Positions 3,001-43,150 are shown, counted from the first letter of the stretch. The stretch is DNA of 60,000 nucleotides from Botryllus schlosseri (GCA_051294905.1 CM119372.1:3722001-3782000); one strand, 5' to 3'. The notes: a model not told the origin generated them from the sequence alone. Numbers and translations are program-made.

Positions 3001-5900
3001 TGACGTAGGGTTTTACAATTATTTCACACCTTTTTGAATAAGCGTCAACTTCCCAAAGGATTAGGGTTGGATCAGAAATAAGTGATAATTTGTCGGTATT
3101 CCAATCACCCGCTGCGACGGTTCTGTTATTCGTTACTTATTAAATTTTACCAGTGAAATCCGGTTCTGTGACAAACTGCTTACGAAAATTTCAACGCTTG
3201 AGCGATCGATGTCTGTAGCGCCAAGTCGCAAAAGATGGCTATGACCGAGACATTATGTTGTCAGCGATTGCGGGGTTTTGCAAACTATTTCACACCTATT
3301 TGGAGTGTTAGCATGTTGTTGGTATTGGAATCACCGTCTACGCCGGCTCTGTCTGAGATTAATGATATTCTCTATAACCATCCTGACACACAAAGTCTAT
3401 CTAGGGACTTATCCGATAGACCAGTTACCAAAGAAACCAATTAGCGGAAAATTCGCTATCACCATTAATTACGACGAGTCGAGTTTGCCTGGGTCCCACT
3501 GGGTGTCTATATACAGAGATGACGATACTCATTTTCATGATTCGCTAGGCTTCGGACCACTAAAACCTCAGATAATCGAATTCCTCGAGCCGGATGAATT
3601 TTCAGTGACTGGGAAACAGTTACAGAGTAAAACTTCAGATATGTGTGGAGATCATGCTATCGCATTCTTGATAAAAAGAGCTCAAGGGTTTTCAACCGAG
3701 GAATACTTGGATAATTTTGGTGATGATAAAAAAGTGAATGATACGATTGTACGTGTTTTTGTGAAGAGTTTGATTTCAGAGTAATAAACGAATGTGTAAA
3801 TGTGTATAATTGTGATTCTTGTTGCGACTGTGAACAGCAGACGAAACAGTGAATAAGCCGAAAGTATTATTCAGCTAGCAATCAATAGCGAGGAAAGAGA
3901 ACACGATCGGTCATTTGACACGACTAAACTACGACATCATATAACATAATTTACGATCAAACTATTTCGCACTGAATGGAATAGTGTAATATTCGATAGT
4001 AGCACGCGGTTGGCCGTGAAACAATTCAGCGCGCAGGTCATTCGGAATATAGGTCGCACGCACTGCTTAATCCTCTTGCAAGCCACGTTTCCGTTTGTGC
4101 GGTTATTGTTGGTGACTATTCAACACCGCGCGAGAGATGGTTGAAAGTGCGCATCACGACCGCACCCATAAGAACACATGGCGAGTCACCACATATCGCG
4201 TTAGAATACATGGCGCATCACCGCCGCAGCCTATATCCACAACGTTAGTTCACTACGACACAAGAATCCGTGGGCACATCATCACCACAGCCTATAGCAA
4301 AAAAGGCGAGTCACCAACACGAGTTTTCAGGCACATCACCGCCGCAGCCTATACCCGAAAGGGTACCATCATCACCGCATCCATAAGAACACATGGCACC
4401 TCACCGCCGAGAGGGGGTGTAAAAGGGTGCCATCACCACCACGAGTTTTCGCGGCACCTCACCGCCGCGCCCATAAGAACCAATGGCCCGTCACGACCGA
4501 TCGACTATACTACTTCAAGGGCAATCGAAATGGTACCCAAAGAAAATACAGGCCGGCTTTTTACAATCGGGAACATACTCGGTGTACTAAATTTTCTCTT
4601 TACATGGTGCAAGAACAAGGCGATTTGATGCGCACTACTTCACGCGCGTAGACAGCCGAACAAACCTCCAACCTTCTAGGACTGCAACTACGTTTAGCGC
4701 TGCCACATGAAATATTTCTTAAAGGTACTCAACTCGGTGCTGTGATCTTTGACGTAGCCTCGGTGCAAGAATGCCCACCTTGTTCCGCGCGTTGCTGCGT
4801 TTCTTTCTAAGCTTCAATTCCTTCTGCTCCATGTTGCGAGTCCAGATCGGACTGGATAGATGGTGATTTGAGGCTGCTTATATGCATTTCTGATTCAAAA
4901 ACAAACAAAGACTTCCCCTGTCACAGCTGGCTATGAATTTCAAGCCTAGTTCGTGACAAGTTATTTCTTTCTATATTGTTTTATGAGTAATTATTCGTGT
5001 TCCAGCTGTGGCCATTAACTAATTGTTTTGGCTCTATCAGCCACCAAAATGGCACGACTTCGTGTGCGAGTTAATCCCCCTCATCATCATAAATGACCTA
5101 TTATAACGACTTCGTGCGCGAACAGAAATGACCAAGCGTCACGATTCGTGCTCGGCTCCTTTTGGATAGAAACATCAGTCGCCATTTTGATTTGCGTCAA
5201 AACACAATACCTTGCAGTACCTCGCTCGCTGCAATCACCTTTTTCCGCTCAGGGTAATGCTTTACTTTTTGGTTGTAAAGTAGGTATCCCATTTAGGTTC
5301 TCTTTCACAAGCTTACTCAGCAACCCACACGTCCCAACGTCTAAATACAAGAATTCTTCAATTCGGATTTCCATGCGAAGCCTAGCCAAAACTGCGAGAT
5401 CTCAGTGTTTTTAGGCGTCAGAGCTATACCCTATACGACTCAAGCCCCGTTGACCCATAACTGGCAGAAGCGCCGACTTTGAGAGTCACAATTAGCCCCC
5501 CCCCCTTTTTATCAAAAGGACCCCTATTGCTCATCTATTTCTTTAGGCCGCCAGCGGGCGCTGTTGTTTCATTATGCGCACACAAAATTCAATCGAGGCT
5601 TTCATAAACTGGATTTTGGTACATAAATTGACAACATATGTCTTAACAACTGTTCTTTTTACGTTACATTGAGACATAACAAGTTCATGGATCCTTTATT
5701 GACAACTCGGCCTCTCCTTACGCTATTCTCAGAATATAACTATAGGCCGAGCGTTGTTCGTAAATCATGGCCTTTGAGATTATTCGCACGCACCACTAAT
5801 GGCGCGCAAGGTCTATGTTTTTCGAAGCGACGTCGCGAACGAATATCAGGTTACTGGTACGTGTGTTAAGCTCTTCAAACACTACTGTCCCTATGGCGAA
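1..5900. mobile_element. Decayed Polinton/Adintovirus-like segment (boundaries not defined)
   Basis: Contains the adenain-like protease amid intronless broken ORFs and locally duplicated gene-like blocks. No TIR, pPolB, integrase or capsid gene was recognised in the window, so the extent is inferred. Confidence 0.4.
3350..3784 (+). pseudogene. Adenain-like (adenoviral-type) cysteine protease of a Polinton/Maverick/Adintovirus, probably frameshifted near its N-terminus
   Basis: The ORF 3278-3784 contains YLGTYPIDQLP...INYDESSLPGSHWVSI...FHDSLG...QLQSKTSDMCGDHAIAFL, with the His (SHW), Asp (DSLG) and Gln-x5-Cys (QSKTSDMC) catalytic pattern of Polinton proteases. The expected N-terminal segment SEINDILYNHPDT lies in the neighbouring frame (ORF 3235-3444), implying an indel near 3390. 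AATAAA follows at the stop. Confidence 0.82.
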
Positions 5901-6515
5901 AAACTTTCACCCAATCAGTTGACATTTCTGGTTATTGGTGTAAGGTATATCTCTCTTTCGGTTTGCCTAGAAGGAATAACCTAATACAATATAGTCCATC
6001 AGACATGGGGTGATTACTTCATGAATGTAATCGATTGCGATTACGATTACTTCGGAATCACGCGATTACGATTACGATTACGATTACAGCAAAATCAGGA
6101 AGTAGTCGATTACGATTACGATTACATTGGAAAAGTAATCACGATTACTCACGATTACATCTGTTTTGCTTCTTAGGACTATAATCTTAAATGATATATT
6201 GGAAGACAATACAAGGATTGCGATGAAAAGGCTTAATGAGATATCAACTCTCTTCATACATCATGTGTCATTTGCTTATTACGTCATAATACACCAATTG
6301 CCCAACTTTATAGTGGATGATTTATCGCACCCAACGATTTGCATTATTGCCAGGTCTTTACCTGCCGCACCCCATATTCCTTAATAGGGCGGGGAGCGTG
6401 CTCGAAGGGGACTCAAAAGTATTTGGTAAACCAACATAAATTATAGAGTATTTTCGAGAATTTATTTACTCCTTGAAAATTTTCTTCGAGCTTTGCGATT
6501 CAAATGTCTCTAGTG

Positions 6516-7007
6516 CAGGGGTCACCAACGCGGACCAAATGAGTCGCCCACGGTCGCTGTAGCAAATATCCAAATGAGAGATTTGAAAGTTGAAGCTGGT
6601 TTCATATGAGCAGCAGTTGAACATGGGTCGGCCGACCCCAAGGAACATACGAACGCAGTCGCTCGGGGCATTGCTTGTGTTCGCCCACGCGGCGGCTCAA
6701 CGGGAATCTATAGTTAGCCTAATATTCCCGAGTCTCGACGCGGAGATTGGCGCTTCGAAGCGCACTGCAGCAACGCAACTGATCCCGGAGGAGCTGGTGT
6801 GAGTCCCGGCGAGTGAGCGTTTTTTGTTCTTGGTAAGGGGCGGAAACCCGGCCCAGTGCTCTGATTGTCTTACTCTAAGTGAAGAAATCCAACTGAACAC
6901 GGATAATCGGCGGGAGTAAGTGGTAAGGTAACCCGTCGGTCGTCGCAATAATCAGTACACACTACACAAGAAGTAGCTTTTTGTTTCAAAACGGTTGGTG
7001 AGCCTTG
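6516..7007. mobile_element. hAT/Charlie-like MITE nested in copy 1 (mirror copy at about 18501-18992)
   Basis: Termini CAGGGGTCACCAAC...GTTGGTGAGCCTTG; degenerate 8-bp TSD CTCTAGTG / CTCCAGTA, resembling the Charlie NTCTAGAN target. Confidence 0.7.
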
Positions 7008-7182
7008 CTCCAGTAGATAGCTGGGTTTGAAATGAATACCTCTTCCCCTCAAGAAAAAACATGCATAGGCTATTTTATGGGAACAGGCATTTCGGAGCCG
7101 GTCATTACCGCGCCACGATCCCACAACACACCAAAAGGCATATGCAGTTTCGGCCAACACGCAACTCCATGGGATGTGATAC

Positions 7183-8131
7183 CAGTGTTGGGATCAAGTC
7201 ACTACCTCCAAGTCACGAGTCATTTCGAGTCATTGCACACTTTGACTCGAGTCAAGTCAAGTCAATCGATTTTCGAAGGTGACTCGAGTCAAGTCAAGTC
7301 ACTCGATTTTTGGAGGTGTCTCGAGTCAAGTCGAGTCAAGTCAAGTCAAGTCACGAGTTAAGTCACGATTCAAGTCAAGTTACCTTTTCGAAGTATGAGA
7401 CATGATTACGTCATTGCATTTTGCTAGCTGTCTGATATACAGATTGAGTGGTCATTGATTTTGAACCGATGAACGAATATAGAGTTTAATATACACGCTG
7501 TATCGCTTACATATACGTAGAACAGCTGAACTACCTAAGTAATTGCATAGCCTAAGTTTATAGTTACCAGCCAAAATAGAGAATGGAGAAACAAATTGAT
7601 AAGATGCAATACATTACTCATTTTTAAATTGATATGGTATAATTCGAGCCTGCGCCAATGGCGCTATATTGTCCTACTCTATCAACTATATTCTAATTCA
7701 ATTTCAATAAAACAAGAGGTTTGGTTAAGGTACGAACAGAGAACAGAAATATACATTTTGCTATTAAATTACTTTACTGTACTAGTTTACGACAACGTAA
7801 GCTTCGATCACTTCGCTTGCGGTCAATTTATTTGTGAGAGAACAATGGAGGCTCAGTAAAACGCACGATCATCGAATGCTTGGTCGCTCTCACGGGTTAC
7901 ACCTGCGTTTCGCGAACAATCCGAACATATGCAAGATACAGCGATTTTTATCGACACCGATTACTTGACGACTTGAAATTGACTAGTGAATTTTGCTGCG
8001 AGTCACGAGTCAATCCACATTTCTGATACGCCGAGTCAAGTCAAGTCAAGTCATTTTAGCAAAGTGACTCGAGTCAAGTCAAGTCATACGAAAAAGGAGA
8101 CTCGAGTCTGACTCGAGTCATCCCAACACTG
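7183..8131. mobile_element. hAT-type MITE with GACTCGAGTC/TCAAG subterminal repeats nested in copy 1
   Basis: TIR CAGTGTTGGGAT...ATCCCAACACTG; perfect 8-bp TSD TGTGATAC (7175-7182, 8132-8139). Confidence 0.92.
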
Positions 8132-9482
8132 TGTGATACCAAAGAAATACCTTGGCCGAAACTTAGGGTATTCGTCCATTGTCAATAGCCGCGCTGGGTG
8201 GGCGTGACTAATAATTCCTGTCCTTCCAATCTGGGCCCACAATGCAAATGCCACCCGGCGCATCGACAAAGGAATAAAGCCATGACAATTTGTGTGTGCG
8301 TCTCACGAAAGATATTCTTTTAGTCTGCTACGTTTGGGCGAGTACAATATCTTTTGATTATACAACAGACTGGAGGTCGCGAATTAACAACATACAATAA
8401 AGTAATTATAACAACATACCAGATGCTATATGATTATGAATTACGTGCCCAATCTCTACAGGTAAATCTGACACTCGGGGCTGAGAGAGGTTATAAATGA
8501 ATAGTAATATAATGCAATTACCAATATTATTGACGAAATTCAGTTATGAAAATTGACCAACGGTTAGACAGGTGGACGAATTGCTGTTTTGGCTGAATTG
8601 CTGATTCTAGCTGCAACCCACCGATAACATGTCAGTCTATATAAGCGGGTGGTTATGGAGGCAGGTCGAGATGCTGAGTAACGAACTGTTAAATAACGAT
8701 TGACGCCTGTTTCAAGTAGTTATATGAGAATAAGATATTGTAAACATAAAATTTCTGCCTTCAACTTAATACATATACTGCGAGCTGCTGTTACGAGAAA
8801 CGGCTAAGCACGGCTCGGTTATGATATATATCAGCAGCTGTTTATTTGTAATGCTTCGTTGTGGAAACTGCAATGTTTTATTCGACGAGTACAAAATTCC
8901 GAATCTTCGTCAGGTGCAGGTGCGCACGTAGACCTCCTGCTCGCCAAGCAGCAACGGTAAACTGCGTTTAACTAAGCACAACCAAACATCAATACATAAG
9001 TTACTATTTGAAACTATAGAGTGGTGATCAATATCCTGCTGCGAGGTATAGGGGCTTCTGTAGTGTATTGATAACCTGATATACACCACGGGTGGTGTTC
9101 TTACAATCACACTACAATGTCCAATTGTCCATCGCATGTCTGTTTACTGTGTGTGGATACTTCTTACGCAATGACGAGCGGACCTAATACTTCTGACGTA
9201 ATAATGAGTCAGTGGCGTTTGAAAACAGACGATTGTGCTATCGCTAACGCGGTATTAAATCTCATTCTTGTTCACGAATATTCAGTTTATGTCACAGTAC
9301 TTGTACAAACAAAAAGTAATCGTTCTTTCACAAAAAAATCGATTAGATATGGGAAGTAGTCGATTACGATTACGATTACTTCGGAATTTTTTCGAATGTA
9401 ATCGATTGCGATTACGATTACTTCAAAATGCTGTAATCGTCGTAATCGATTACGATTACTAATCGCGATTACCCCATGTCTG

Positions 9483-10151
9483 AATGGCACATATTTTTTG
9501 AATCAATACCATCCTCGGGTGGACTATTTTCAAGTCAATTACAATATTTATGGGGTGGGGGACCTATGGTACCATAGCCAAATCAAGCAAAATAGATGGA
9601 CCAACTAAGCACTTAACAACAGAAACTCGCCTACACATATATAGGCTGTAAATCATAGTTACCTGTGGTGTTTTATCGCTATTACGAGGTATTTGAAAGT
9701 CAAAATATCGATTTGCGGGTAATATGTATGTGGCATTAAATTTGGAAGTTTAGGCGTAAATCAAAACATGATTTTAGGCCAACATTTGAGTTGATATAAT
9801 CTATTTTATTCTTGAAGGTCGCGACGAAACATTCATTATTGGTTTGCTGTCACTTAGCTTATAGTACATAAAAAAGCAAGTTACCTAATTTGAGTTTTTG
9901 AGCGTACGTCTCATAGGTCCCATGGTCGTGTGCCTTTGGACCCACCGGGTGGGGACCGATGACACGTTCGAGCAACAAATTTTAAACGTTCATAAATATT
10001 TTTTGAAAAGGCGGATATTCATGTAAATGTCCGCGATAGGTAGAGCTTGTAACGAAGTTTTGAGACAGCAAAAGATCTGCTATTATCGGCTGAAGATTTG
10101 AGGGCCAGAGATCATTTTGCAATATTTGATCCATCGGTACCACATCTCCCC
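9483..10151. mobile_element. One half of an older TA-flanked (Tc1/mariner-pogo-like) non-autonomous element split by the hAT insertion and inversion
   Basis: Ends in TGATCCATCGGTACCACATCTCCCC|TA; the identical 28-mer occurs at 19784-19811. Confidence 0.7.
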
Positions 10152-12179
10152 TACGTATGGAGTCAGCATTTCAAGTCGAAAATTGGAGGCGGAAACGGTA
10201 CCTTTTCCCACTGGCTATGACTACCTATGGCTAACAGCAACTAAAATAATTTCCCGTATATAATACCTGGAAGGTAACGCTGAAGTAACCAAGTATTCCG
10301 CAGGGTCATAATGTCGTATGCCGTTGAAAGGGGTGTGTAATAAACTCGGAATGAAGTGTAATTGATGTATAGATTTATTGTACTTCGGCAGGTCGTATTA
10401 TTGTAAGTTGAAAATGGCCATAATTGCAAATTATTGGCAACTTCTGGTGAAGGTATACTGCACCACCACAACGAATAGTAATGGATTGAGGGTTCAGGTG
10501 CAGTTAATACCTACCTTTACACGAGGAACACTGAATGTAATTCGAGAGAGTATGAGACAAAGAAGTGTAAAAAGTCAGTGATATGACGAAGCATAAATTT
10601 TATTGAAGTTTATTTGATCTCATATGGAACAGGTGAATTTAACAGCAACAAAATTTGGCGTATAAGCGTAAAAAAATGGTGAAAGTGTAGGGTTGAATAA
10701 TCTGGACTTGAAGGCATTAATGTAGTATTCGTGTACCGAGGATAAATACTAGGAACGACCAAAAACGACCAGAGGAATAATCTGTCGGCCATTTTAATTA
10801 AAGCGAAATATGAACTCGCCGGCTGTATAGTCGGCGGGCTGTGGCAAGAACAGTTTTAAATCTGGCCTGATAGAGTGAATAACCGTTAAAGCTTGATGTG
10901 CGATGCAAATTCAGGAAGTTATAAGGAGTCAAATTTCATAATCGATGCCATATGGTAACTCGAATGAGATGCGAAGAACTATCGTTGCGGCAAAGTTAAT
11001 ATGACGGCTTGCAGCCGACTTTTAATTTACCAAAGTAATGTGACCTGTAGTTGTATTTTTTGGACCCTTTTAAACTCCGCAAATTTGTGACTATTTGGTG
11101 AAAGAAAACATAAAGTTAACTCTACGTGGAATTCCCAGCCGGTCGAGATTCGCCACTAAGCCAATTACAATCCAGGCGTTTAGTTATGCGATAATTATAA
11201 TACGGGTATAGCAAATAGCTACGGCCTATGAGAGCTACGCGTTACCTAAGAATTGCGCTGCGACTGCAAGGAATACACGACCTTTTGAATTGCTATTGGA
11301 AAGAGTCACCTAAATTCAACTCAGGAAAATCAACAATTGTCCGGGATTCTAAACTCGCACTAAATTCGGGTCATCAACGCCGAGTGTTAGCAATCGTTGG
11401 CATATGATGTCGCATGTGTTTGACACAACGCGCAAGAATATATGTATTCTGATTTCGCCCGTACAAGGAAGATACAATAATCGCCAAATTATTCGTGCGG
11501 TACTCTCTAATGCTGCGTGCGTGCGTGAACGATAGTGAAATGACGGCCTTGCGGGGTCGGTTGTGCAAGCTTGTGTTGCGCAAGACAAAATGGGCAGTCT
11601 ATATCTACTTTACGGGAAGAGCGTGCGAATGTTAGATTAAGCTCATGTGAAACCTGTACGGCCTTAGGCCAGATCAAACTGGTACTGCACCGGGTCCAGA
11701 CTAGCTTTTATATAATTAGATCACTGAGCAGACAACGGCCAATCTCACCGCCACCAAATTACTAATAGACACTTACGTGACCTTTGACACGAACCAATCA
11801 GGTTGCAGCAGAATGTAAACAAAGAACAAGGCCGGGCAAGCTTACTATGAGCTCTTATGGGAAATGGTTGAAAAATGAAGGTTTTAAGCAAATTTACGTT
11901 GAATTGGCGATGACTGGCCTTAATAAATAGTAATAGCGTAGAGCTAGTATGTAGTTGCAGCCTTTAGTCTAGGATGAACATGAATGGTGGTAAGTACGCA
12001 TCAGCGTGCTGTGTCCAAATGCATGGTTTTTTGACAACTTTTCGGATTAAGCGATGATTGTTGTATACTATACTATAGGATTGTTGTAATGCATATTTTG
12101 ACGATTTCATAGGCTGCCGGTCTCGAGCGAAATTTTCAAGCATATCTCATGTTCAGAAATATATGCTATAAAATACAGC

Positions 12180-12720
12180 TGCTGCCACACATCACAATTT
12201 TGGTGTATTGATTATGAAACTTGAAAGCTATGGAGATTCTATCGAATTTCTGGATTTGAGTGCAACAGCATCTTCTAACACCGCGGAGAAAGCTACGAAA
12301 TATTCATGGAGCGCTACGTACACAACTTAGGGACAAAGATTGAGGAGACAATCCACTCTTTGTGGAAGCAATATTCTAGTGAACAGCCAATGTTATCGAA
12401 ACTTGCGGAAAAGTGAGATATACTCAATGGAAATACACGTTCTCAGAAAATCTATTATTGATTCGTCTTGCACTTGTAAGACAGTGTAAGTAAAGCAAAA
12501 GACATTTTTTCAGAGATTCCTGCAATTGATGTTGTAACCATGATTTATTTTCACATTAGGTTCTGATATATGCTCTCATGCATATATGCATTGATGAAGA
12601 CAATCCAGGACCTGAAGTTACAAGGACTACATTGTGATTTGCATCAGCCTCAGTGAGCTCGATCGTGATAGACAATCAATTTCTCGACCGTACTCGCAAC
12701 CGATCAACTCCTGCCTCAAG
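12180..12720 (+). pseudogene. Possible second gene of the element (SWIM zinc-finger-like remnant)
   Basis: IDSSCTCKT at about 12457-12483 and CSH at about 12571, separated by an intron-like GTAAGT...TAG stretch; convergent with the transposase. Weak evidence. Confidence 0.3.
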
Positions 12721-13039
12721 GTAGATTTTGGTGTATCTGGTGGCTTCAGTTTTATAACATTCCACCAAACACAAATAATCCTAGTACATTTTCACCTGGA
12801 GAATTGTTCATTCAACAAATCGGGCCTCTAAATAAGCTTCAATGCACACCACTGGAGTATAGTATGAATAGACATGCACTGTTGGTACACATTGACCATG
12901 GCACCGCGCAATTATGATCCGTAGCATGCTATTAGGCATTACGATATTCACAATGGAACTGAATTTGCACAATTTCCGAATATGTTGCGTCGGTCATTTT
13001 TAATTTTCAATCTTGAATTAGAGTAAGCAATTAGTCCAT

Positions 13040-14366
13040 ATTTGGCTAGTTGATTCACAATGCTGCATAGTATGACACCAGACAAAATTTTATACTCCTT
13101 GACTCTTCCGATCAGCTGTTCAATATGAATACGTTGTCTAGCCATCTTTCTTGTTGTGGAACAGTCTGGCTCAGGCATTTGGCGGTGTGCCAAATCATGT
13201 GCAGGAATATTTAAATCTAGATTCAATTTCTTGATTTCAGACTCAATCCCTTTTCTGCCATGATCGCATTTCCTGGTTCACCATAGCTGAACTCCATCAT
13301 TGTCTCACATTTCTTGTCGAATCCACATATTTCACTAATATTTCGATCTGAAATGGTCCCTGTGAACAGTTCAGTTCCTGCACAAAAGTAAGTGCACCAC
13401 AATCCATCAATCCTTTCAAAGTTGTATGTGATTTATTGACAGTCAATAATCATTCTAGTTTTGAGTAATCATGAATGAATGCAAATGGTGCCTTTTTAAG
13501 AACCACATATCTACATGGCCAAATCGAAATCTAATGAAGCAGTTATATACGGTTGACCCAATGGTTTAATACTATGCTTACAGCAATACCATAAATTTGA
13601 CGTCAGTAGGATAAGTCGGGCAATTCAGAAAGAATTTAATGTAGTCTAGCATAAAATTTCAGCTTCTCCGCATCTTTTGACATTATGATGCTCCTCTGAG
13701 AACTATACTTCACTAGCAATAATTGTCCGTCAATTTGTAATTTTCCTGGACGGGTTTCCTGTTTTGTGCTTCTACTTCTTCCAGAAATTTGATTTTCTCG
13801 CGTTTTATCCATCAAATTCCTCTTTCTGCAGCTTCATATAAGATATCCATCAAGCCTGCACAAAATATAAAATATGTTTATTTTACAGAGCAACACTGCT
13901 GTGCAGCCACCTATCAAGGCGTACTCGTCCGACTCATGCAACGTATCAGCGCTACCAATTTCAACTATTCATCTCATTATTGAATATATTGCTCTCCACA
14001 GTTTCAATCCATTACACACCATCAAGCAACAAAACTGGAGTGGAATAAAACGAGACACACTCCAAGTCGATTGTGCATCAAGTGTGACTGCATTTCAGAT
14101 TGGACTCATTTTGACATTTTGAAACACAGAATTGTTTCATCTAAATTATGTCACGATTCCATATTTTTGGTGCAATAATAGATATGTCATTTTATTAATA
14201 AAATGAGAATTCAGATGACTATAAGGAAGTCCACATGCCTTTATCCAGATTTTACATTCTTCCATGCATGTTATTGGCTCTGGGAAAGGTACAAGCGCGC
14301 ACCAGGAACGGTCTGGGTAGCCATCTCCAAGTTACGCAGGCTATTAGCGCAGTGGTTATCCGTCAT
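13040..14366 (-). pseudogene. THAP-domain + DDE_Tnp_4 transposase, disrupted
   Basis: Fragments in order: MTDNHC..., VPFPEPITCMEECKIWIKACGLP (THAP FP..W motif), TRMIIDC, KSHTTLKGL, ELFTGTISDRNI, PGNAIMAEKG, LNIPA, TTRKMARQRIHIEQLIGRVKEYKIL (matches RIHVERxIGRxK). Many frameshifts and stops. Confidence 0.8.
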
Positions 14367-15748
14367 TTGTCCTGATTGATTCAATACATGAGTTAGAACA
14401 AAAAATGACGATTTCAGCTGGGAACGGATCATGTTGCCTAACATATATCATATTCATATGATCATTGAATATGCAGACAAGTGTCCAGTGTAACAGTAAT
14501 TTGCTAGATAATGATGCAGACTGTAGACTGTACTATACGATTTCATAAATAGAACGCTTATTATAACACCAAGCCCACATACTGAATACCCCACATATCC
14601 TGACTCAAGATTAATCTAATACATGCCTTCGGTACGACAATCGCATTGTGTACGACTAAGGACTAAGGATAATACAGCAATAGTTGCTTCATCCAAAAAG
14701 TTGTCAGAAATCCATTCATTTGGACATACCATGCTGATGAGTGCTTGCCACCATTCATGTTTATTGTAGGTTAGAACACTGCAAATACATACTAGCTCTA
14801 CGTTATTACCATTCACCAAAGCCCGCTATTCCCAATTCAATGTAATTTTGCGAAAAACCTTCATTTTCAACCCTTTTCCATAAGCGCTCATAGTGAGATT
14901 GCCCAGCCTTGTTCTTTGTTTACATCCTGCTGCAACCTGATTGGTTCGTGTCAAAGGTCACGTAAGTGTCTATTAGTAATTTGGTGGCGGTGAGATTGGC
15001 CGTTGTCTGCTCAGTGATCTAATTATATAAAAGCTAGTCTGGACCCGGTGCAGTACCAGTTTGATCTGGCCTAAGGCCGTACAGGTTTCACATGAGCTTA
15101 ATCTAACATTCGCACGCTCTTCCCGTAAAGTAGATATAGACTGTGGTATAATAGTGGCCAATGAAACCGCGCTATTTTTTCTTTAAAAAAATGTAGAAAA
15201 TCGGCGTCATTATTGATAAAGTACGAGAAGTGGTTTGGGTTTTACGCCTAGAAAGGGTGAGCGATCCTCGAATTCGCTATCTTATTAGGGATGTGCTGTC
15301 TTGCATATACCTCCCATAGGCTGTTAATTTTTGTCTGTTTTATACACTTGATCCCCTGGCCACTATATGGTCGGCGTTTGCTCTGTGATTAATGCTGTGC
15401 AGAGTGCACTGTGAGGTGCGTGGTGTTGATTGTGCTGTCAAATGTTGATGTGGCACGGGATTCGCGGCGGCGCGAATTCTGAGTTTGTTCAAGTAGTTTG
15501 AATTAAAGTAGATTAGCTGAGCGGACTTTTTCGGGCGAGGCGATATCGCGGATCGAATTTCAAACCATCGGGATTTGCAATTCTGGTGAAATAAGATCGC
15601 GGCAATAACGATGTTGCGCCATATGGTCACTGTATAATGAAATCCGCATGAACCCACTGCCGCTTCCTGACTGAGAGTTTCGAGAACAATCGTTCTAAGG
15701 TAACTGGGATATAATCCCGTGCGGCCGAAATGATTTTATAATGGACTA

Positions 15749-15847
15749 CAGACATGGGGCAATCGCGATTAGTAATCGTAATCGATTACGACGATTACAG
15801 CATTTTGAAGTAATCGTAATCGCAATCGATTACATTCGAAAAAATTC
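15749..15847 (-). mobile_element. Truncated 99-bp terminal fragment of the same hAT-type element
   Basis: CAGACATGGGGCAATCGCGATTAG...CGAAAAAATTC matches 16028-16126 with one mismatch; it is preceded by ATGGACTA. Confidence 0.92.
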
Positions 15848-16027
15848 TACAGCCTGATTTACAGCCTATATATGTGTAGGCGAGTTTCTGTTGTTAAGTG
15901 CTTAGTTGGTCCATCTATTTTGCTTGATTTGGCTATGGTACCATAGGTCCCCCACCCCATAAATATTGTAATTGACTTGAAAATAGTCCACCCGAGGATG
16001 GTATTGATTCAAAAAATATGTGCCATT

Positions 16028-19000
16028 CAGACATGGGGTAATCGCGATTAGTAATCGTAATCGATTACGACGATTACAGCATTTTGAAGTAATCGTAATC
16101 GCAATCGATTACATTCGAAAAAATTCCGAAGTAATCGTAATCGTAATCGACTACTTCCCATATCTAATCGATTTTTTTGTGAAAGAACGATTACTTTTTG
16201 TTTGTACAAGTACTGTGACATAAACTGAATATTCGTGAACAAGAATGAGATTTAATACCGCGTTAGCGATAGCACAATCGTCTGTTTTCAAACGCCACTG
16301 ACTCATTATTACGTCAGAAGTATTAGGTCCGCTCGTCATTGCGTAAGAAGTATCCACACACAGTAAACAGACATGCGATGGACAATTGGACATTGTAGTG
16401 TGATTGTAAGAACACCACCCGTGGTGTATATCAGGTTATCAATACACTACAGAAGCCCCTACCTCGCAGCAGGATATTGATCACCACTCTATAGTTTCAA
16501 ATAGTAACTTATGTATTGATGTTTGGTTGTGCTTAGTTAAACGCAGTTTACCGTTGCTGCTTGGCGAGCAGGAGGTCTACGTGCGCACCTGCACCTGACG
16601 AAGATTCGGAATTTTGTACTCGTCGAATAAAACATTGCAGTTTCCACAACGAAGCATTACAAATAAACAGCTGCTGATATATATCATAACCGAGCCGTGC
16701 TTAGCCGTTTCTCGTAACAGCAGCTCGCAGTATATGTATTAAGTTGAAGGCAGAAATTTTATGTTTACAATATCTTATTCTCATATAACTACTTGAAACA
16801 GGCGTCAATCGTTATTTAACAGTTCGTTACTCAGCATCTCGACCTGCCTCCATAACCACCCGCTTATATAGACTGACATGTTATCGGTGGGTTGCAGCTA
16901 GAATCAGCAATTCAGCCAAAACAGCAATTCGTCCACCTGTCTAACCGTTGGTCAATTTTCATAACTGAATTTCGTCAATAATATTGGTAATTGCATTATA
17001 TTACTATTCATTTATAACCTCTCTCAGCCCCGAGTGTCAGATTTACCTGTAGAGATTGGGCACGTAATTCATAATCATATAGCATCTGGTATGTTGTTAT
17101 AATTACTTTATTGTATGTTGTTAATTCGCGACCTCCAGTCTGTTGTATAATCAAAAGATATTGTACTCGCCCAAACGTAGCAGACTAAAAGAATATCTTT
17201 CGTGAGACGCACACACAAATTGTCATGGCTTTATTCCTTTGTCGATGCGCCGGGTGGCATTTGCATTGTGGGCCCAGATTGGAAGGACAGGAATTATTAG
17301 TCACGCCCACCCAGCGCGGCTATTGACAATGGACGAATACCCTAAGTTTCGGCCAAGGTATTTCTTTGGTATCACACAGTGTTGGGATGACTCGAGTCAG
17401 ACTCGAGTCTCCTTTTTCGTATGACTTGACTTGACTCGAGTCACTTTGCTAAAATGACTTGACTTGACTTGACTCGGCGTATCAGAAATGTGGATTGACT
17501 CGTGACTCGCAGCAAAATTCACTAGTCAATTTCAAGTCGTCAAGTAATCGGTGTCGATAAAAATCGCTGTATCTTGCATATGTTCGGATTGTTCGCGAAA
17601 CGCAGGTGTAACCCGTGAGAGCGACCAAGCATTCGATGATCGTGCGTTTTACTGAGCCTCCATTGTTCTCTCACAAATAAATTGACCGCAAGCGAAGTGA
17701 TCGAAGCTTACGTTGTCGTAAACTAGTACAGTAAAGTAATTTAATAGCAAAATGTATATTTCTGTTCTCTGTTCGTACCTTAACCAAACCTCTTGTTTTA
17801 TTGAAATTGAATTAGAATATAGTTGATAGAGTAGGACAATATAGCGCCATTGGCGCAGGCTCGAATTATACCATATCAATTTAAAAATGAGTAATGTATT
17901 GCATCTTATCAATTTGTTTCTCCATTCTCTATTTTGGCTGGTAACTATAAACTTAGGCTATGCAATTACTTAGGTAGTTCAGCTGTTCTACGTATATGTA
18001 AGCGATACAGCGTGTATATTAAACTCTATATTCGTTCATCGGTTCAAAATCAATGACCACTCAATCTGTATATCAGACAGCTAGCAAAATGCAATGACGT
18101 AATCATGTCTCATACTTCGAAAAGGTAACTTGACTTGAATCGTGACTTAACTCGTGACTTGACTTGACTTGACTCGACTTGACTCGAGACACCTCCAAAA
18201 ATCGAGTGACTTGACTTGACTCGAGTCACCTTCGAAAATCGATTGACTTGACTTGACTCGAGTCAAAGTGTGCAATGACTCGAAATGACTCGTGACTTGG
18301 AGGTAGTGACTTGATCCCAACACTGGTATCACATCCCATGGAGTTGCGTGTTGGCCGAAACTGCATATGCCTTTTGGTGTGTTGTGGGATCGTGGCGCGG
18401 TAATGACCGGCTCCGAAATGCCTGTTCCCATAAAATAGCCTATGCATGTTTTTTCTTGAGGGGAAGAGGTATTCATTTCAAACCCAGCTATCTACTGGAG
18501 CAAGGCTCACCAACCGTTTTGAAACAAAAAGCTACTTCTTGTGTAGTGTGTACTGATTATTGCGACGACCGACGGGTTACCTTACCACTTACTCCCGCCG
18601 ATTATCCGTGTTCAGTTGGATTTCTTCACTTAGAGTAAGACAATCAGAGCACTGGGCCGGGTTTCCGCCCCTTACCAAAAACAAAAAACGCTCACTCGCC
18701 GGGACTCACACCAGCTCCTCCGGGATCAGTTGCGTTGCTGCAGTGCGCTTCGAAGCGCCAATCTCCGCGTCGAGACTCGGGAATATTAGGCTAACTATAG
18801 ATTCCCGTTGAGCCGCCGCGTGGGCGAACACAAGCAATGCCCCGAGCGACTGCGTTCGTATGTTCCTTGGGGTCGGCCGACCCATGTTCAACTGCTGCTC
18901 ATATGAAACCAGTTTCAACTTACAAATCTCTCATTTGGATATTTGCTACAGCGACCGTGGGCGACTCATTTGGTCCGCGTTGGTGACCCCTGCACTAGAG

Positions 19001-19508
19001 ACATTTGAATCGCAAAGCTCGAAGAAAATTTTCAAGGAGTAATTAAATTCTCGAAAATACTCTATAATTTATGTTGGTTTACCAAATACTTTTGAGTCCC
19101 CTTCGAGCACGCTCCCCGCCCTATTAAGGAATATGGGGTGCGGCAGGTAAAGACCTGGCAATAATGCAAATCGTTGGGTGCGATAAATCATCCACTATAA
19201 AGTTGGGCAATTGGTGTATTATGACGTAATAAGCAAATGACACATGATGTATGAAGAGAGTTGATATCTCATTAAGCCTTTTCATCGCAATCCTTGTATT
19301 GTCTTCCAATATATCATTTAAGATTATAGTCCTAAGAAGCAAAACAGATGTAATCGTGAGTAATCGTGATTACTTTTCCAATGTAATCGTAATCGTAATC
19401 GACTACTTCCTGATTTTGCTGTAATCGTAATCGTAATCGTAATCGCGTGATTCCGAAGTAATCGTAATCGCAATCGATTACATTCATGAAGTAATCACCC
19501 CATGTCTG
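16028..19508 (-). mobile_element. Non-autonomous hAT-type DNA transposon, copy 2
   Basis: Same TIRs as copy 1; perfect 8-bp TSD GTGCCATT at 16020-16027 and 19509-19516. Confidence 0.93.
17377..18325. mobile_element. Mirror copy of the nested GAGTC-repeat MITE in copy 2
   Basis: TIR CAGTGTTGGGAT...ATCCCAACACTG; TSD GTATCACA on both sides. Confidence 0.92.
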
Positions 19509-19808
19509 GTGCCATTATATACCCTGATAAAGCCCTGTACTTCACATCAAAAATTATGGCGGGTTTGTTAGTCTGAAAGGTGATATAGAAAAATGCAAAT
19601 GTCAATCCAAATTTACTTTACACCCCCAAAAACGTAAATCATTCGTCACAGACCCCATAACTTACGCAGGTCGAATTTTTTTGCATGTGAGTGAAGATTC
19701 TGTCAGCATGAAATCGTAGACAAATTCACGGAGTGTAATCATGGAATTATCATGGAGAATTGTTCAAGTATTTTCGGTCCCGGTGATCCATCGGTACCAC
19801 ATCTCCCC
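19509..19808. mobile_element. Other half of the split TA-flanked element
   Basis: Ends in TGATCCATCGGTACCACATCTCCCC|TA, identical to 10127-10154. Confidence 0.7.
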
Positions 19809-20226
19809 TACCACTACGTCTCATCAGAGTCGGATGAAAAGCTTTATGTAGCCTACGTATAATCAACTAATATGAATTTATTTTTTAGCGATTAACACAA
19901 CAAATATTACTAAACTTACATTATTTCTAAAATTTTCCAAATAGCTCTGTGGCCCACCTCAAATGCTCTTGTGGCCCACCCTTTCAGAACCCCCGCCCTA
20001 AGCTATATCCACAGGCCGGATATGATACAGAAAACACTCACGCAGGACTCGAGAACATTCCGATTACTGCGACCATGAATTTCACAAAATTTTGTTTGGG
20101 CTCATATTTTTCTTATTTTTAAATCCCGCATAAAGAACCTACGTATAGTCGTTACATTTGGCGAGCTGTAAGAATGAAAGTCTCTTGTTGAGACGCATAC
20201 GGTAATTTGAAGATCTTCTTGAGTCG

Positions 20227-20909
20227 CAGGACCGTAACTGCGGCACCCTATACCCCCCAATTAGGGGGGCGAGCTCGAAGGGGGCCCAAAATTATTTTGT
20301 GAATTAACATAAATTATAGAGTATTTCTCTGGAAATTCAGGAAATTTTTCGCGCTGCGCGCGATTTCATGTTGCCACATAACTTGATTATTGGGTACCCT
20401 TTCATTTTTGCCAATAAAGAAACACCAATTTGAAATCGTTTACGTTTAGGCTAGTTTAGTAGGTTTGGGCGATTTCAATATCTTTCGACATAGCAGACAG
20501 GAGGTCACGAAATAGCATCATGTAGCTAAGTCATTATACCAACGGGTCCGCCCGAAAATTTTGATTATTATTTAGGGATCCTACCTTTTCCAACACACCC
20601 CATTCAGCTCTACCGGTAAATCTGATTACATGAACAGATCGAGGATATAAAATCGATAGCAGTAGGCTATATATGCAATTCCCGATCATATTGACCGATG
20701 CAGTCATGAATGATAGAAAATTTTCGCGCTTAGCTTGTTCAGGCGATATCAGCTAACTCACTGAACAGAACTGCCAGTGTCTCTCAAAAGCAGCGGCAAA
20801 ATGCCTATAGCGCAAGGGGGGCGAAGCCCCCCAGAAGTTCGGTTTATCACCCTATGTGGGGCCGAAGACCAACGTTTTGGGGGGCTGACGAAGTGCTGTT
20901 AGGGTCCAG
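20227..20909. mobile_element. Old MITE-like element (related segment at about 40515-40600)
   Basis: Imperfect termini CAGGACCGTAAC...GTTAGGGTCCAG; the block GGTTTATCAC...GGGGGCTGACGAAGTGCTGTTA is shared with 40533-40600. Confidence 0.5.
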
Positions 20910-39880: not shown

Positions 39881-42277
39881 TTTAACTGAGAACGAAGTCA
39901 TGCAATCGACAATTGAATATGATGCAGCAACATCAAGGTTATTCTGAAGAAATGGGTTATAGGGCAAGTTTTTGCTGCACTGAAGTCACGAAAAAGTTGC
40001 ATTTATAATTTTTGTTCAATTATTAGGTATCGGATACTCGAAATGTTCGGTTGTATAACAGCAAGACAATTATGCAATATGGAAGTTATTTTCCCAAAAA
40101 GAAGCCAAACAGCATTGGGATAACCCCCTTCCCCCTAACAAAAGTCAAATAACACACCCAAAACTCCCTATGTCTGCAAACTTGACCCAAGAGTCCTAAG
40201 GCATTACAGAAAAACTCACTCTCGGCGGACAAGAGGTAACAAAATAACATGTAACGATTTAATTGTACCAACGGCCATGCCCGAATATGTTCAATTATTA
40301 ATTAAGTGGCCTTCATTTTCCAATCCAACAGCTGTCTCAGCGCTACTGGTAAGTCTTATTACGTGGGCTGAGAGGATAAAAAGTTTATAGCGACATATAT
40401 ATGCAATTACAACCTATTTCATTCATGCATTATAGAAAACTTTGGCTCCTATGGCGACCAGGTCACATAAACTTTGCTGACCATCGAAATCACGCGACGG
40501 GGTACTTGGGAGAGCGAAGCCCTCATGAGTTTGGTTTATCACGCTATGGGTGCCCAAGACAATCGTTTTTAGGGGGCTGACGAAGTGCTGTTACGGTCCT
40601 CCCTCTCACCCATTGTCTTTATTACAGTCCTTACAATATGAGGTGGGGGGCGCTGGAGCACGATAATTTTTGAAAGGGGGCGCTGGAGGAAAAAAGGTTA
40701 AGAACCACTGGTATAGGCTATACAAGTAAATATATGAATTTCATTCTAAATCCACAGGAAGTTCAAATTGTGTTTCCTCTCATGTAGCCTAAAGTGTTCT
40801 AAGCTATGATCGATTTCAGCGGTGAAGTTTTGTAAATGTTGTACGAATGTAATTGTGGTGCTACATCCTATGTGCGTGTAATAAGTTTGAAGCAGAATTG
40901 CTTTCTTGTAATCCTTTGTGCAATTTGTTGTGCGCTTATAAATGCGTTATTGCGCTTGGTACATTAGATATATCTGCCATGAGCTTAAATTTTGCTGTGA
41001 AGCGAGGCGATTTCAAACGTTTCATTATAAAAAAAAACACAAATACCAAAATATTGTGATAGAATGAACAGATGGAAGGAGTCAAAACGAAGGCAATCAA
41101 TCTAACTCACATCTGAGTCCACAAATATGGCAAAAAATGTAAGAACTTCTTAAAAGTGGTGTCGAGAATGTACACACACAACGAGTATGTATGAGCTTAC
41201 TGAAATTGTTTCAATGGGCAGGCGATGAACAGGCAATTTACAGCACTGGGTACAGTCAAAATTGGTGTTTCAAAATTGACCAAAATCAAAAGTTAACGAC
41301 GCCTTCATTTCACAAATATAAATCATTACCCGTGCGTTTGTGGCCCATATACGCTACCCATGTAGGATATTATATATGTCTGATGTAGGAGTATAGCTTA
41401 CTATATGCGTATGCTGTCTCTATCCCATACTCACTGTATGTTTATAAGGCATAAAAGAAAACAATGATATCAGTATTAATATTCGCCATTCGGCCTGTCA
41501 ATTCTAAATAACTGAACCACGGTCTCGGTCTGGATCGCAGGTCGATGAGGCCTCGTTATACTCAATCAGCCATCAGGCAGCCTCAGCAATAAAATAGCCA
41601 TGCAATGTCACAGTGCACCTGTGGGCTGTGGAACAGGCACGGCAAAACCAGTAAGAAAACTCCATAACTGCTACTTCCGATGAAGGTTGTGACTCGGAGA
41701 TGCACGTACTGTTCTTGAGATCGATGACGCGTAAATACTACAGTTACACGGACCTGGCTTTCGAGGCTAAAAATACTGAGCCATACGTCGCAGTCAGCTG
41801 GTTTGGGCACAACACAAATATGCTTCATCACAATCACGTGATCATTGGCATTCGGGGATATTTTTATATGTGACGTCAAATTTAATACTCGTGACTTCCT
41901 CGTGAGAGTGATTTGTTTTCTAATTTTATCGGAGCAAAACAACTGTTCAATTTCATCAAATATATCGTGTGTGTTTTTTAGTTTACGAAATTTTTCTATC
42001 TTAGTTTTACTATTGCGGATATAATCATCTCTGTCAACCAAATATCACGCGCCATGATTCTACTAGTTTTGAGAGTAATTTGATTACCAATGGTTCTGGT
42101 TAATGGTCATTAAGGTTAGCTGTCTGTCGTCACAATGTATGATATCATAAAATTATGACGTAACTGAGATTGTCTCACGAAACTTTTCGACAGGTGACGC
42201 AAAACTACGTTGTGAAGTCTGTGAGTCTGTGAGATAAATTTTAGAAACTGTTTTTATATATAGGCAGCGCAAACATC

Positions 42278-43150
42278 ATGAATTTACAAGGCTGCTACGA
42301 TGTGTTTAACGATTACTTGGGCCTGTCGACTGTTGTCGGCGGTCAAGAAGACCAATGCTACTGGATGCGATCTGTTCTCGGACGGGACTACAAGAAATTC
42401 CAGAACATTCCAAGCCTGGATCATCAATTTTCCGAAAGCCACCTCGACATGAACGCATACTACGATTCGAAACTGTCAGACGTAGAGAGATTGTTTGGGC
42501 GCGGAGCTGTCCTACAGAAATCAATCAACGAAGATTCAGAACCTGCTACTAACAACTACCAAGTACCGGTACTCGAAAATTTGACACCACCCACCACCAA
42601 TCAAGCTGCATATCCAGTTAGTGGCAAAGAAGACTACAAGGACAGAATACAAATAGCTCTCGATGCGATTTTGCAAAAATACAGCCATCTTCAAAACCCC
42701 TGCCTAACTTCAAGCCAATTCGCCGGTAATTTCCAAGATCGCTACATGGCTTCCAGCAATATTCCGCCGGCAAATCAACTTAATCAACAGTGCGGCATTG
42801 ATGACAGAAAGATATTGGCTAATTTGGACCTGGATGGCAATAATCGCATACTTCGCGTCACCAGGGCAGCGAAATCTGGCATTGGCAGCTCCGCCACGAG
42901 ATTCATCGGATGTTCCTTCTGCAAAAACAACAAAGAAGTCAAAGATTGGTATATGTCACACCAGCTCAAGGATAGCACTGGAAAGGTTACTTGCCCCGTG
43001 TTGAGAAGTTACGAATGTCCTTTGTGTGACGCGACTGGAGATAATGCTCATACGATTGGTCATTGCCCCTTAAACCCAAATCGCCACAGTAGCCTCCCGC
43101 TTGCTGTAAGAAGCAAGACTAACGCGACAGGGAAGAAGAAATCACTGTAA
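42278..43150 (+). CDS. nanos: Nanos RNA-binding protein (290 aa, single exon)
   Basis: Tandem CCHC fingers CSFCKNN...YMSHQLKD...VTCPVLRSYECPLCDATGDNAHTIGHCP, and an N-terminal NOT1-interacting-motif-like YDVFNDYLGLS. Confidence 0.96.
   Translation: MNLQGCYDVFNDYLGLSTVVGGQEDQCYWMRSVLGRDYKKFQNIPSLDHQFSESHLDMNAYYDSKLSDVERLFGRGAVLQKSINEDSEPATNNYQVPVLENLTPPTTNQAAYPVSGKEDYKDRIQIALDAILQKYSHLQNPCLTSSQFAGNFQDRYMASSNIPPANQLNQQCGIDDRKILANLDLDGNNRILRVTRAAKSGIGSSATRFIGCSFCKNNKEVKDWYMSHQLKDSTGKVTCPVLRSYECPLCDATGDNAHTIGHCPLNPNRHSSLPLAVRSKTNATGKKKSL

Follow-up and report, generated by a model that had tools for sequence, protein, structure and literature searches.

A 6.3-kb inversion marked by exchanged target-site duplications at opposed copies of a hAT-like transposon in Botryllus schlosseri

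Inversions made by transposons are known in Drosophila and maize, and the same type of event is known in snapdragon. A Tam3 inversion was reportedly described by Lister et al. in 1993, hybrid element insertion of the P element is said to have been described by Gray et al. in 1996, and one-sided invasion, or abortive gap repair, at double-strand breaks reportedly goes back to Belmaaza and Chartrand and to Nassif et al., both in 1994. Recombination and alternative transposition are contrasted with each other in PMC8225341. According to the study on Galileo (Delprat et al. 2009, PMC2775673), inverted copies with exchanged target-site duplications (TSDs) are classically the mark of ectopic recombination, and hybrid element insertion predicts identical copies. 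For the maize Ac/Ds elements, two reports (PMC4270019; bioRxiv 10.1101/2020.01.07.897926) describe alternative transposition that leaves fractured ends together with duplicated donor flank, joined up by end joining.

The locus described here lies in Botryllus schlosseri (GCA_051294905.1 CM119372.1:3722001-3782000). The window is the whole stretch of DNA analysed, 60,000 nt in length, and all positions are counted within it. A preliminary description had proposed that positions 9483-15748 were flipped recently by a non-autonomous hAT family, and the coordinates of elements and TSDs given there were all found correct by direct reading. The features of the locus are as follows.

5500..5999, plus strand: flank A, left half of host repeat 1 (a dispersed repeat), with T1 = TAGTCCAT as its last 8 bp (5992-5999); 40 genome matches scored, 70-92% identity
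6000..9482, plus strand: TE1, a 3,483-bp non-autonomous element read left to right; 12-bp TIR CAGACATGGGGT, CGATTAC subterminal repeats
7183..8131, plus strand: nested 949-bp MITE within TE1; TIR CAGTGTTGGGAT, TSD TGTGATAC at 7175-7182 and 8132-8139
9483..9655, plus strand: F, 173 bp of the right flank of TE1, starting with AATGGCAC (reverse complement of T2); inverted duplicate at 15855-16027
9483..10154, plus strand: long half of host repeat 2, an abundant repeat of about 970 bp; 39 paralogues, 94-95%, query 1-672
9656..15740, no strand: M, single-copy body of the inverted segment, mostly transposon debris (self-comparison, ORF/Pfam scan)
15457..15748, minus strand: Y, the right half of host repeat 1, inverted; its last 8 bp (15741-15748) are ATGGACTA, T1 in reverse complement
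15749..15847, minus strand: R99, a fractured right end of the element, 99 bp long, with a single private substitution (C at 15760)
15848..15854, no strand: 7-bp filler TACAGCC, identical to 15860-15866
15855..16027, minus strand: inverted 173-bp duplicate of F, ending in T2 = GTGCCATT (16020-16027)
16028..19508, minus strand: TE2, a 3,481-bp copy read right to left, with matching T2 at both ends
19509..19811, plus strand: D, the short half of host repeat 2, starting with T2 = GTGCCATT (19509-19516)

By direct reading, TE1 begins with CAGACATGGGG at 6000 and ends with CCCCATGTCTG at 9482, and is bordered by TAGTCCAT on the left and AATGGCAC (9483-9490) on the right. The inverted copy TE2 has GTGCCATT on each side, and ATGGACTA at 15741-15748 adjoins CAGACATGGGG of a third element end at 15749. 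Copies in opposite orientation are thus found one per breakpoint, TE1 (plus) at the left and the stub at 15749-15847 followed by TE2 (minus) at the right. The inner and outer TSDs are exchanged and inverted: T1 stands to the left of TE1 and its reverse complement beside the stub, while the reverse complement of T2 stands to the right of TE1 and T2 to the right of TE2. The chance of finding a given 8-mer at one fixed place is 4^-8, or about 1.5e-5. Self-comparison gave the inverted arms (6000-9655 against 15855-19508; 3,656 and 3,654 bp, 99.9% identity) and revealed that they extend 173 bp beyond the element into the right flank of TE1, which had gone unnoticed. Owing to this 173-bp flank duplicate TE2 has T2 on both sides. 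The outcome is not a simple two-copy inversion: TE2 retains matching TSDs and has a break-repair scar beside it. The third element end, which abuts ATGGACTA, is only a 99-bp stub that is followed by the filler and the flank duplicate. The suggestion that the whole 13.5-kb structure could move as a macro-transposon appears doubtful, given that both outer termini (6000 and 19508) are left ends and form no left/right pair; hAT elements generally need one end of each kind, and this family would presumably do so too.

The flipped segment contains the remnant of a PIF/Harbinger-like element within M (inverted repeats at 11595-12066 and 14672-15143, with a DDE_Tnp_4 fragment on the minus strand at 12948-13277). 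No host gene was found in it, and the sole Pfam match among ORFs of at least 80 aa was this transposase fragment.

Both insertion sites lie inside dispersed repeats, and the uninterrupted paralogues of these repeats contain each target once. For T1, the match to A abuts the match to Y with 8 bp shared in 17 paralogous loci of host repeat 1; the overlap is exactly 8 bp in 11/17 and one alignment ends a base short in the other 6/17. The Y paralogues were 81-90% identical across query 1-292. The empty site predicted in the preliminary description, CAATA-TAGTCCAT-TATAAAATCATTTCGGCC, was found letter for letter in two of the host-repeat paralogues (L010 and L011), which read caata TAGTCCAT tataaaatcatttcggcc. 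At locus L012, the best A piece fell short of the junction in the scripted readout and the match coordinates still gave the 8-bp overlap. For T2, the short half and the reverse complement of 9483-9900 overlapped by exactly 8 bp in all six paralogues fetched, and four pairs with an 8-bp overlap were present among the top-40 matches listed. These paralogues show that both 8-mers are true target-site duplications, and that before insertion A-T1-Y was contiguous with one copy of its 8-mer, as was the reverse complement of the sequence from F onwards with T2 and D. It follows that 9483-15748 (6,266 bp) is inverted relative to the ancestral order, as had been claimed, and that 9483-10154 is the ancestral left neighbour of the T2 site. 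The uninverted state is read here from repeat copies elsewhere in the genome rather than from an allelic chromosome; the assembly has no second haplotype of the locus, with one 100% match each for the A and Y queries, and the orientation of the middle segment is known from the assembly alone.

TE1 and TE2 differ by four substitutions and one 2-bp indel (99.9% alike), and the next closest copies are 95-96% alike. Set against 14 other family copies, each of the five differences is a private derived state. This indicated that the two are sister copies, evidently each other's closest relatives, and it agrees with the earlier view that the event was recent, no other copy being more than 96% alike. 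The MITE is present in TE2 as well (17377-18325), and the corresponding TE positions 1186-2132 are absent from most family copies. Genome-wide, 2,142 left termini matched 34 nt with at most two mismatches (control 0), giving a family size of about 2,100 copies in the 495-Mb genome. Both exact termini were present in 11/14 fetched copies, and all 11 of these had a perfect 8-bp TSD with the bias nTnnnnAn (T at position 2 in 10/11, A at position 7 in 8/11). Within its first 160 bp the left end has 11 copies of the motif CGATTAC; the final 170 bp of the right end contain 8 copies in one orientation and 4 in the opposite one. Short TIRs combined with dissimilar subterminal repeat arrays at the two ends are as expected for hAT elements, and the YARNG motif, which we take to be a hAT motif, was matched in the family only as CAGAC. 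The nTnnnnAn target preference has been stated for Hermes (PMC10368747). The element has no ORF longer than 114 aa and no Pfam match, in line with its description as non-autonomous. Although the genome contains at least 150 PF05699 matches, none of 30 fetched loci with a hAT dimerisation domain had family termini around the transposase, and at one locus (L060) a family left end merely adjoined a hAT-transposase-type ORF. The family is hAT-like by its 8-bp TSDs, their bias and its end features, and no transposase was linked to it in these searches. The family can be regarded as transposase-competent and young. No second pair with swapped TSDs was found in one outward-facing and one tandem pair from the first 100 left ends listed; the former consists of old diverged copies (82-86%) with no readable TSD swap and the latter of ordinary insertions, with CTCATGAT as a further family TSD. 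By chance alone, 2,142 ends would give about 30 outward-facing pairs of family members less than 20 kb apart.

The right breakpoint reads, in order, 99-bp stub, 7-bp filler, 173-bp flank copy and TE2. F and its inverted duplicate are identical at 173/173 positions and the alignment stops at 9655/15855, while in the left arm the flank is continuous across 9655/9656, as it is in 39 paralogues that are unbroken there. The junction of stub, filler and flank duplicate is a break-repair scar, and the filler is templated. Since the swapped partner of TE1 consists of a 99-bp stub followed by filler and flank duplicate, the locus records at least one break-repair step. The four substitutions between TE1 and TE2 all lie within 830 bp of the left end, and the other 2,826 shared bp have none; for the left 830 of 3,656 bp, such clustering has p of about 0.003 under uniform post-event mutation, which is a post hoc figure. 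The clustering suggests that the scar is younger than the duplication of the element, and a scar that apparently came later is therefore no by-product pointing to alternative transposition.

Our tentatively preferred explanation is that the inversion arose by hybrid-element or sister-chromatid alternative transposition, with TAGTCCAT as the insertion site and GTGCCATT, about 6.25 kb away, as the donor site. The ancestral order would have been A-T1-revcomp(9491..15740)-T2-D with a single element at one of the two sites. Transposase would have cut a left end on one sister chromatid and a right end on its partner. Integration of the two together at the unoccupied site would have inverted the DNA in between, with a complete copy remaining at either breakpoint. 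The copy that adjoins T1 with its right end would later have broken about 99 bp from that end, and the break would have been repaired by one-sided invasion of the other arm, with synthesis through its right end and 173 bp of flank, and the new end would have been joined to the 99-bp stub by end joining with the 7-bp templated filler. One and the same new 8-bp duplication, in inverted form, borders TE1 at its left end and the stub at its right end, which is the outcome when a left and a right end are integrated together, and the sister identity of TE1 and TE2 is as hybrid-element insertion predicts. A single event accounts for both the second copy and the inversion. The TSD pattern and the 99.9% identity are those looked for in alternative transposition, and the pattern fits a hop plus recombination as well. 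We found no published animal example of a hybrid-end event that involved a single hAT element.

Local hopping is what hAT elements do most often, and a local hop of about 6 kb in opposite orientation with the donor kept, followed by an ectopic exchange that swapped the inner TSDs, is a serious possibility that we place just behind alternative transposition. The crossover may have been separate from, or coupled to, the repair event responsible for the stub, filler and flank duplicate. Exchanged TSDs at inverted copies are classic evidence of ectopic recombination, as in the Galileo inversions (PMC2775673), and the 272-bp copy of the TE1 right junction beside TE2 can come only from templated repair on the other arm or a similar allele; inter-copy homologous repair therefore took place at the locus. 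The scar is in this respect proof that the two arms recombined at least once, a prerequisite for the exchange, and the lack of substitutions beyond the left 830 bp agrees with gene conversion that began at the right end. However, at least two events are required (a hop with donor retention and a crossover) instead of one, the two-copy intermediate allele was not seen in the one haplotype of the assembly, and chimerism is not detectable: by the criterion used for Galileo, every one of the 5/5 differences between TE1 and TE2 is a private derived state, with no parental copies to reveal chimerism. The products of alternative transposition and of a hop with homologous exchange are isomers one crossover apart, which sequence alone does not separate.

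It is unlikely that inversion and scar were made in one cell cycle by sister-chromatid alternative transposition into an unreplicated target. The re-replication fork would have collapsed after entering the transposed right end by 99 bp, replication would have restarted on the opposite arm, and end joining would have followed. Such an event would be the natural counterpart of the maize composite insertions; the by-products described for Ac/Ds in PMC4270019 and 10.1101/2020.01.07.897926 are a fractured end, a duplicate of the donor flank and a junction made by end joining, and the break lies just 99 bp from the newly integrated right end. Worked through on paper, however, the published re-replication scheme yields a composite insertion at T1 plus an emptied donor site, the exact structure is not derivable in a single step, and an additional strand-invasion step must be assumed. 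The clustering of substitutions also argues that the right part was homogenised later. We consider it similarly unlikely that the locus is a natural counterpart, in an animal, of the maize composite-insertion and 'Ac killer' loci. Replication-coupled alternative transposition of a single hAT-like element would then have produced the inversion, the fractured end and the flank duplicate within one germ-line cell cycle, and the 3.66-kb inverted duplication would serve as a source of hairpin RNA helping to silence the 2,100-copy family.

More improbable still is an assembly error in which the junctions are real and the middle segment was misoriented between the near-identical arms, or two haplotypes were merged; the true molecule would then be the uninverted isomer, in which T1 holds a composite insertion and T2 an ordinary copy. 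With arms of 3,656 and 3,654 bp that are 99.9% identical, phasing is difficult unless reads exceed about 4 kb. We compared 5300-20100 with public contigs of the species from runs X1, X2, X19 and X20 (X1-X4 are one sample, X19 and X20 others), all of whose pieces are short-read contigs; they are too fragmented to bridge an arm, and no arm-bridging contig was present among the matches listed. Joints seen among those matches, such as 16027 to 19530 and 7174 to 8132, differ in letters and belong to paralogous repeat copies. The only informative piece among the matches listed is the second record of X1, a 321-nt contig that spans the A/TE1 junction (5703-6023) with 0 mismatches and reaches only 24 nt into the element, below our 31-nt rule. 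Against a misassembly, the arms differ at five places and the unbroken flank from 9655 to 9656 is found on the left arm only, and therefore ordinary long reads could place the arms. Moreover, assemblers invent neither TSD-exact junctions nor templated filler, and the alternative isomer would itself be a rearrangement made by a transposon. Three other explanations were rejected. Two independent insertions are excluded by the shared T1 together with the flank that is identical over 173 bp. The four substitutions do not stem from conversion by a third copy, since each is private and absent from 14 other copies. A staggered-break inversion without transposase would require two random cuts to hit two element ends exactly.

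The locus is a base-exact record of how an abundant cut-and-paste transposon reshaped adjoining DNA, with both target sites, both copies and a repair scar preserved, the last showing that the two arms later served each other as template. A family of about 2,100 copies thus does more than insert, and inverted sister copies are substrates for repeated flipping and gene conversion. The event type is already known and the locus is a clean, ordinary example that adds no new principle; its value is that of such an example and of a possible population marker in repeat-rich DNA in which no host gene was found.

Compared with inversions 2j, 2q7 and 2z3 of Drosophila buzzatii, as described in PMC2775673, the locus similarly has opposed copies at the breakpoints and exchanged TSDs, and each target is single in the uninverted sequence. 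Galileo, however, belongs to the P superfamily, with 7-bp TSDs and megabase inversions, as against 8-bp TSDs and 6.3 kb here. Its copies are chimeric, proving ectopic recombination, whereas at the locus the two are sisters in which no chimerism can be detected. One breakpoint of the locus also has a stub, a filler and a flank duplicate, unlike the Galileo cases as reported there. With P hybrid element insertion and Ac/Ds alternative transposition, in its sister-chromatid and reversed-ends forms, it shares, going by PMC8225341 and PMC3744419 (Sharma et al. 2021; Zhang et al. 2013), the joint integration of left and right ends of different copies, if our preferred reading holds, and also a new 8-bp TSD at two breakpoints, an element-flanked inversion and the involvement of a fractured element. 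The maize cases start from an existing pair of Ac and fractured Ac and were caught de novo, whereas the event at the locus is historical and would have started from a single element on two sister chromatids, and no transposase source was found for it. The maize composite insertions formed by re-replication (Zhang et al. 2014, PMC4270019; Wang et al. 10.1101/2020.01.07.897926) are alike in having termini beside duplicated donor flank, fractured elements, an internal junction resembling end joining and a long inverted duplication of transposon sequence. Their donor-flank duplicates are of arbitrary length, whereas the flank at the locus is only 173 bp, and the published scheme does not yield the structure of the locus in one step. 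Filler is also described at transposon excision sites (PMC5023962). In one-sided invasion or abortive gap repair (Puchta 1998, as cited in PMC4272417), one junction is seamless and homologous and the other non-homologous with templated filler, and synthesis runs past the end of homology into the flank of the template, all as at the locus; those cases are experimental or from excision sites, whereas the locus has an inverted transposon pair, one arm of which is the template.

When the sequence was read directly, all coordinates in the preliminary description were confirmed. They define two oppositely oriented copies of a non-autonomous hAT-like element, TE1 and TE2, and their 8-bp target-site duplications (TSDs) T1 and T2 (rc, reverse complement):

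5992-5999, T1, TAGTCCAT, directly left of TE1
6000-9482, left to right, TE1, with termini CAGACATGGGG...CCCCATGTCTG
9483-9490, rcT2, AATGGCAC, directly right of TE1
15741-15748, rcT1, ATGGACTA, adjoining a third CAGACATGGGG at 15749
16028-19508, inverted, TE2, with T2 (GTGCCATT) on both sides (16020-16027 and 19509-19516)

The third element end reported at 15749 was indeed present beside rcT1, but it had been missed that this is merely a 99-bp right-end fragment (the stub, 15749-15847), 98/99 identical to TE1 and to TE2. Self-comparison showed that the inverted-repeat arms (6000-9655 and 15855-19508) extend beyond the element and that 173 bp of the TE1 right flank (F173, 9483-9655) are duplicated in inverted orientation immediately left of TE2, with 173/173 bases identical. 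A 7-nt filler, TACAGCC (15848-15854), separates the stub from the duplicated flank, and the same letters recur at 15860-15866. Stub and flank duplicate make up a 272-bp block copying the right junction of TE1. With A and D as outer flanks and M as the single-copy body of the inverted segment (9656-15740), the full order is A - T1 - TE1 (left to right) - rcT2 - F173 - M - rcT1 - stub (99 bp) - filler - rcF173 - T2 - TE2 (right to left) - T2 - D.

Both insertion sites lie inside dispersed repeats, so that uninterrupted paralogues elsewhere in the genome (495.5 Mb in 219 contigs, the window being C2:3722001-3782000) show what an empty site looks like. To examine T1, two queries were searched, one being the 500 bp on the left of TE1 and the other 15241-15748 in reverse complement. 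Each matched many loci and, among the matches listed, both parts were adjacent on one strand at 17 loci; the two alignments overlapped by exactly 8 bp in 11/17 and in the other 6 one alignment ended one base short. Two of these loci read ...caata TAGTCCAT tataaaatcatttcggcc..., exactly the empty site that had been predicted. These two copies (C3:6875509-6878800 and C3:346386-349677) lie on opposite strands of one contig with identical alignment statistics and junction text, which hints at an inverted segmental duplication there. For T2, the host is an abundant repeat about 970 bp long, one half of which lies at 9483-10154 and the other at 19509-19811, each with about 3,000 first-look candidates. 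The halves overlapped by 8 bp on opposite strands in 4 pairs among the best 40 matches per half, and the same overlap was found in 6/6 fetched loci. Among the matches listed, 39 paralogues span 9483-10154 unbroken at 9655/9656, indicating an ancestral, uninterrupted flank on the left arm. Judged from these paralogous empty sites, the ancestral order was hence probably A-T1-revcomp(9491..15740)-T2-D, which bears out the earlier claim that 9483-15748 (6,266 bp) has been flipped, the T1 paralogues joining 5999 to the reverse complement of 15740. The ~970-bp repeat family itself, the target of the T2 insertion, is young and very abundant genome-wide (94-96% identity).

TE1 and TE2 differ by four substitutions (6465, 6586, 6595 and 6829) and one TA indel (9047-48), giving 99.9% identity, and the next closest copies reach 95-96%. 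Since 14 other copies share one state at all five differences and at the single difference of the stub, each change is a private mutation (two in TE1, three in TE2, one in the stub), and TE1 and TE2 are thus sisters and not independent arrivals. All four substitutions fall in the 830 bp nearest the left end and the remaining 2,826 shared bases carry the TA indel only, which suggests, on a post hoc view, that homogenisation of the right part and flank came after the duplication.

Two routes yield an inversion between inverted copies with swapped TSDs. Our tentative preference is alternative transposition, in which sister copies would contribute one left and one right end to a joint insertion (hybrid element insertion or sister-chromatid transposition), because the second copy and the inversion are then made in one event. 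Ectopic recombination after an ordinary local hop is a possible account and nearly as good, and the scar beside TE2 is proof of recombination between the arms. The products of both routes interconvert through a single crossover and, in the relevant passage of Delprat et al. (PMC2775673), differ solely in the copies, identical after joint insertion versus chimeric after recombination. That the middle segment was simply assembled in the wrong orientation is very unlikely. Assemblers do not invent junctions that match the TSDs to the base, a filler with a template or differences specific to each arm.

The evidence for the arrangement is the assembly together with this internal logic. Short-read contigs from runs with the same species label, placed on 5300-20100, were fragmented by repeats and none of those listed bridged either arm or the scar in this interval; one contig of 321 nt matched 5703-6023 with 0 mismatches, reaching 24 nt into TE1. 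In a run from another sample, two contigs link the right end at 9482 to the inverted right end at 16028 through a different 8-mer (CTTCAGAG); the shorter side comprises 25 letters and the joint is too short to trust, but it may represent a tail-to-tail pair of the family elsewhere.

TE1 contains no ORF longer than 114 aa and no Pfam match. It carries a nested MITE of 949 bp (7183-8131; TIR CAGTGTTGGGAT, 8-bp TSD TGTGATAC) that is absent from most family copies; the same MITE lies in TE2 (17377-18325). The composite has itself transposed, as a 95% identical copy at C11:7488096-7491586 includes the MITE and is flanked by a TSD of its own, AGTGTCAC. A genome search with the 34 nt of the left terminus gave 2,142 matches at no more than 2 mismatches, versus 0 for the reversed control. 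Both exact termini were present in 11/14 fetched copies, all 11 with perfect 8-bp TSDs, whose second base is T in 10 and whose seventh is A in 8, which is the nTnnnnAn target preference stated for Hermes in the section of PMC10368747 on this subject. The TIR is 12 bp and arrays of the heptamer CGATTAC differ between the two ends. These features fit the proposed hAT membership, but no transposase could be linked to the family: none of 30 hAT-transposase loci examined had these termini around the transposase, so membership is assigned by end features only. At one such locus (C15:6988159-6991395, 640-965) a diverged family left end directly adjoins an ORF of 268 aa that contains a hAT dimerisation domain; this ORF was rejected as the family transposase, being outside the element and a mere neighbour. 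Just right of the whole structure, 20264-20326 (63 nt) is 86% identical to TE1 6391-6453 and represents a related-element fragment.

The suggested mobility of the 13.5-kb unit as a macro-transposon appears doubtful, because a left end forms each of its outer termini (6000 and 19508), the family's left and right ends differ in structure, and Ac needs one end of each kind. Requirements extending beyond the TIRs are described for several hAT elements in part of PMC10368747.

The inverted segment contains no recognisable host gene, and its single Pfam match is the first of these features:

12948-13277, minus strand, fragment of DDE_Tnp_4 (PIF/Harbinger transposase)
42245-43150, ORF with a Nanos-type RNA-binding zinc finger (E 5.9e-25)
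50080-51006, ORF with a homeodomain end, a fragment (E 4.3e-6)

The DDE_Tnp_4 fragment is enclosed by inverted repeats (11595-12066 and 14672-15143; 80-95% complementary), and 11595-15143 is likely a decayed Harbinger-type element. The two ORFs are the closest features that resemble genes, and the inversion is more than 20 kb away from them. Left of the inversion, 4149-4496 is a short tandem array in which a 43-nt unit occurs five times in diverged form, the copies being mostly spaced by 90 bp.

Neither alternative transposition nor ectopic recombination alone produces the stub, filler and flank duplicate. In the simplest reading, the copy with its right end against T1 would have broken about 99 bp in from that end, and the break would have been followed by one-sided invasion of the other arm (as cited in a passage of PMC4272417), with synthesis continuing 173 bp beyond the homology, and then by end joining that left the templated filler. 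Part of PMC5023962 describes filler where transposons have excised. Similar fractured ends and flank duplicates are described for maize alternative transposition in the relevant parts of PMC4270019 and 10.1101/2020.01.07.897926, but the maize scheme, worked through on paper, did not give the exact structure in one step. We regard the locus as a genuine inversion made by a transposon, well documented and carrying a repair scar. It lies in repeat-rich DNA in which no host gene was found and belongs to a known kind of event.
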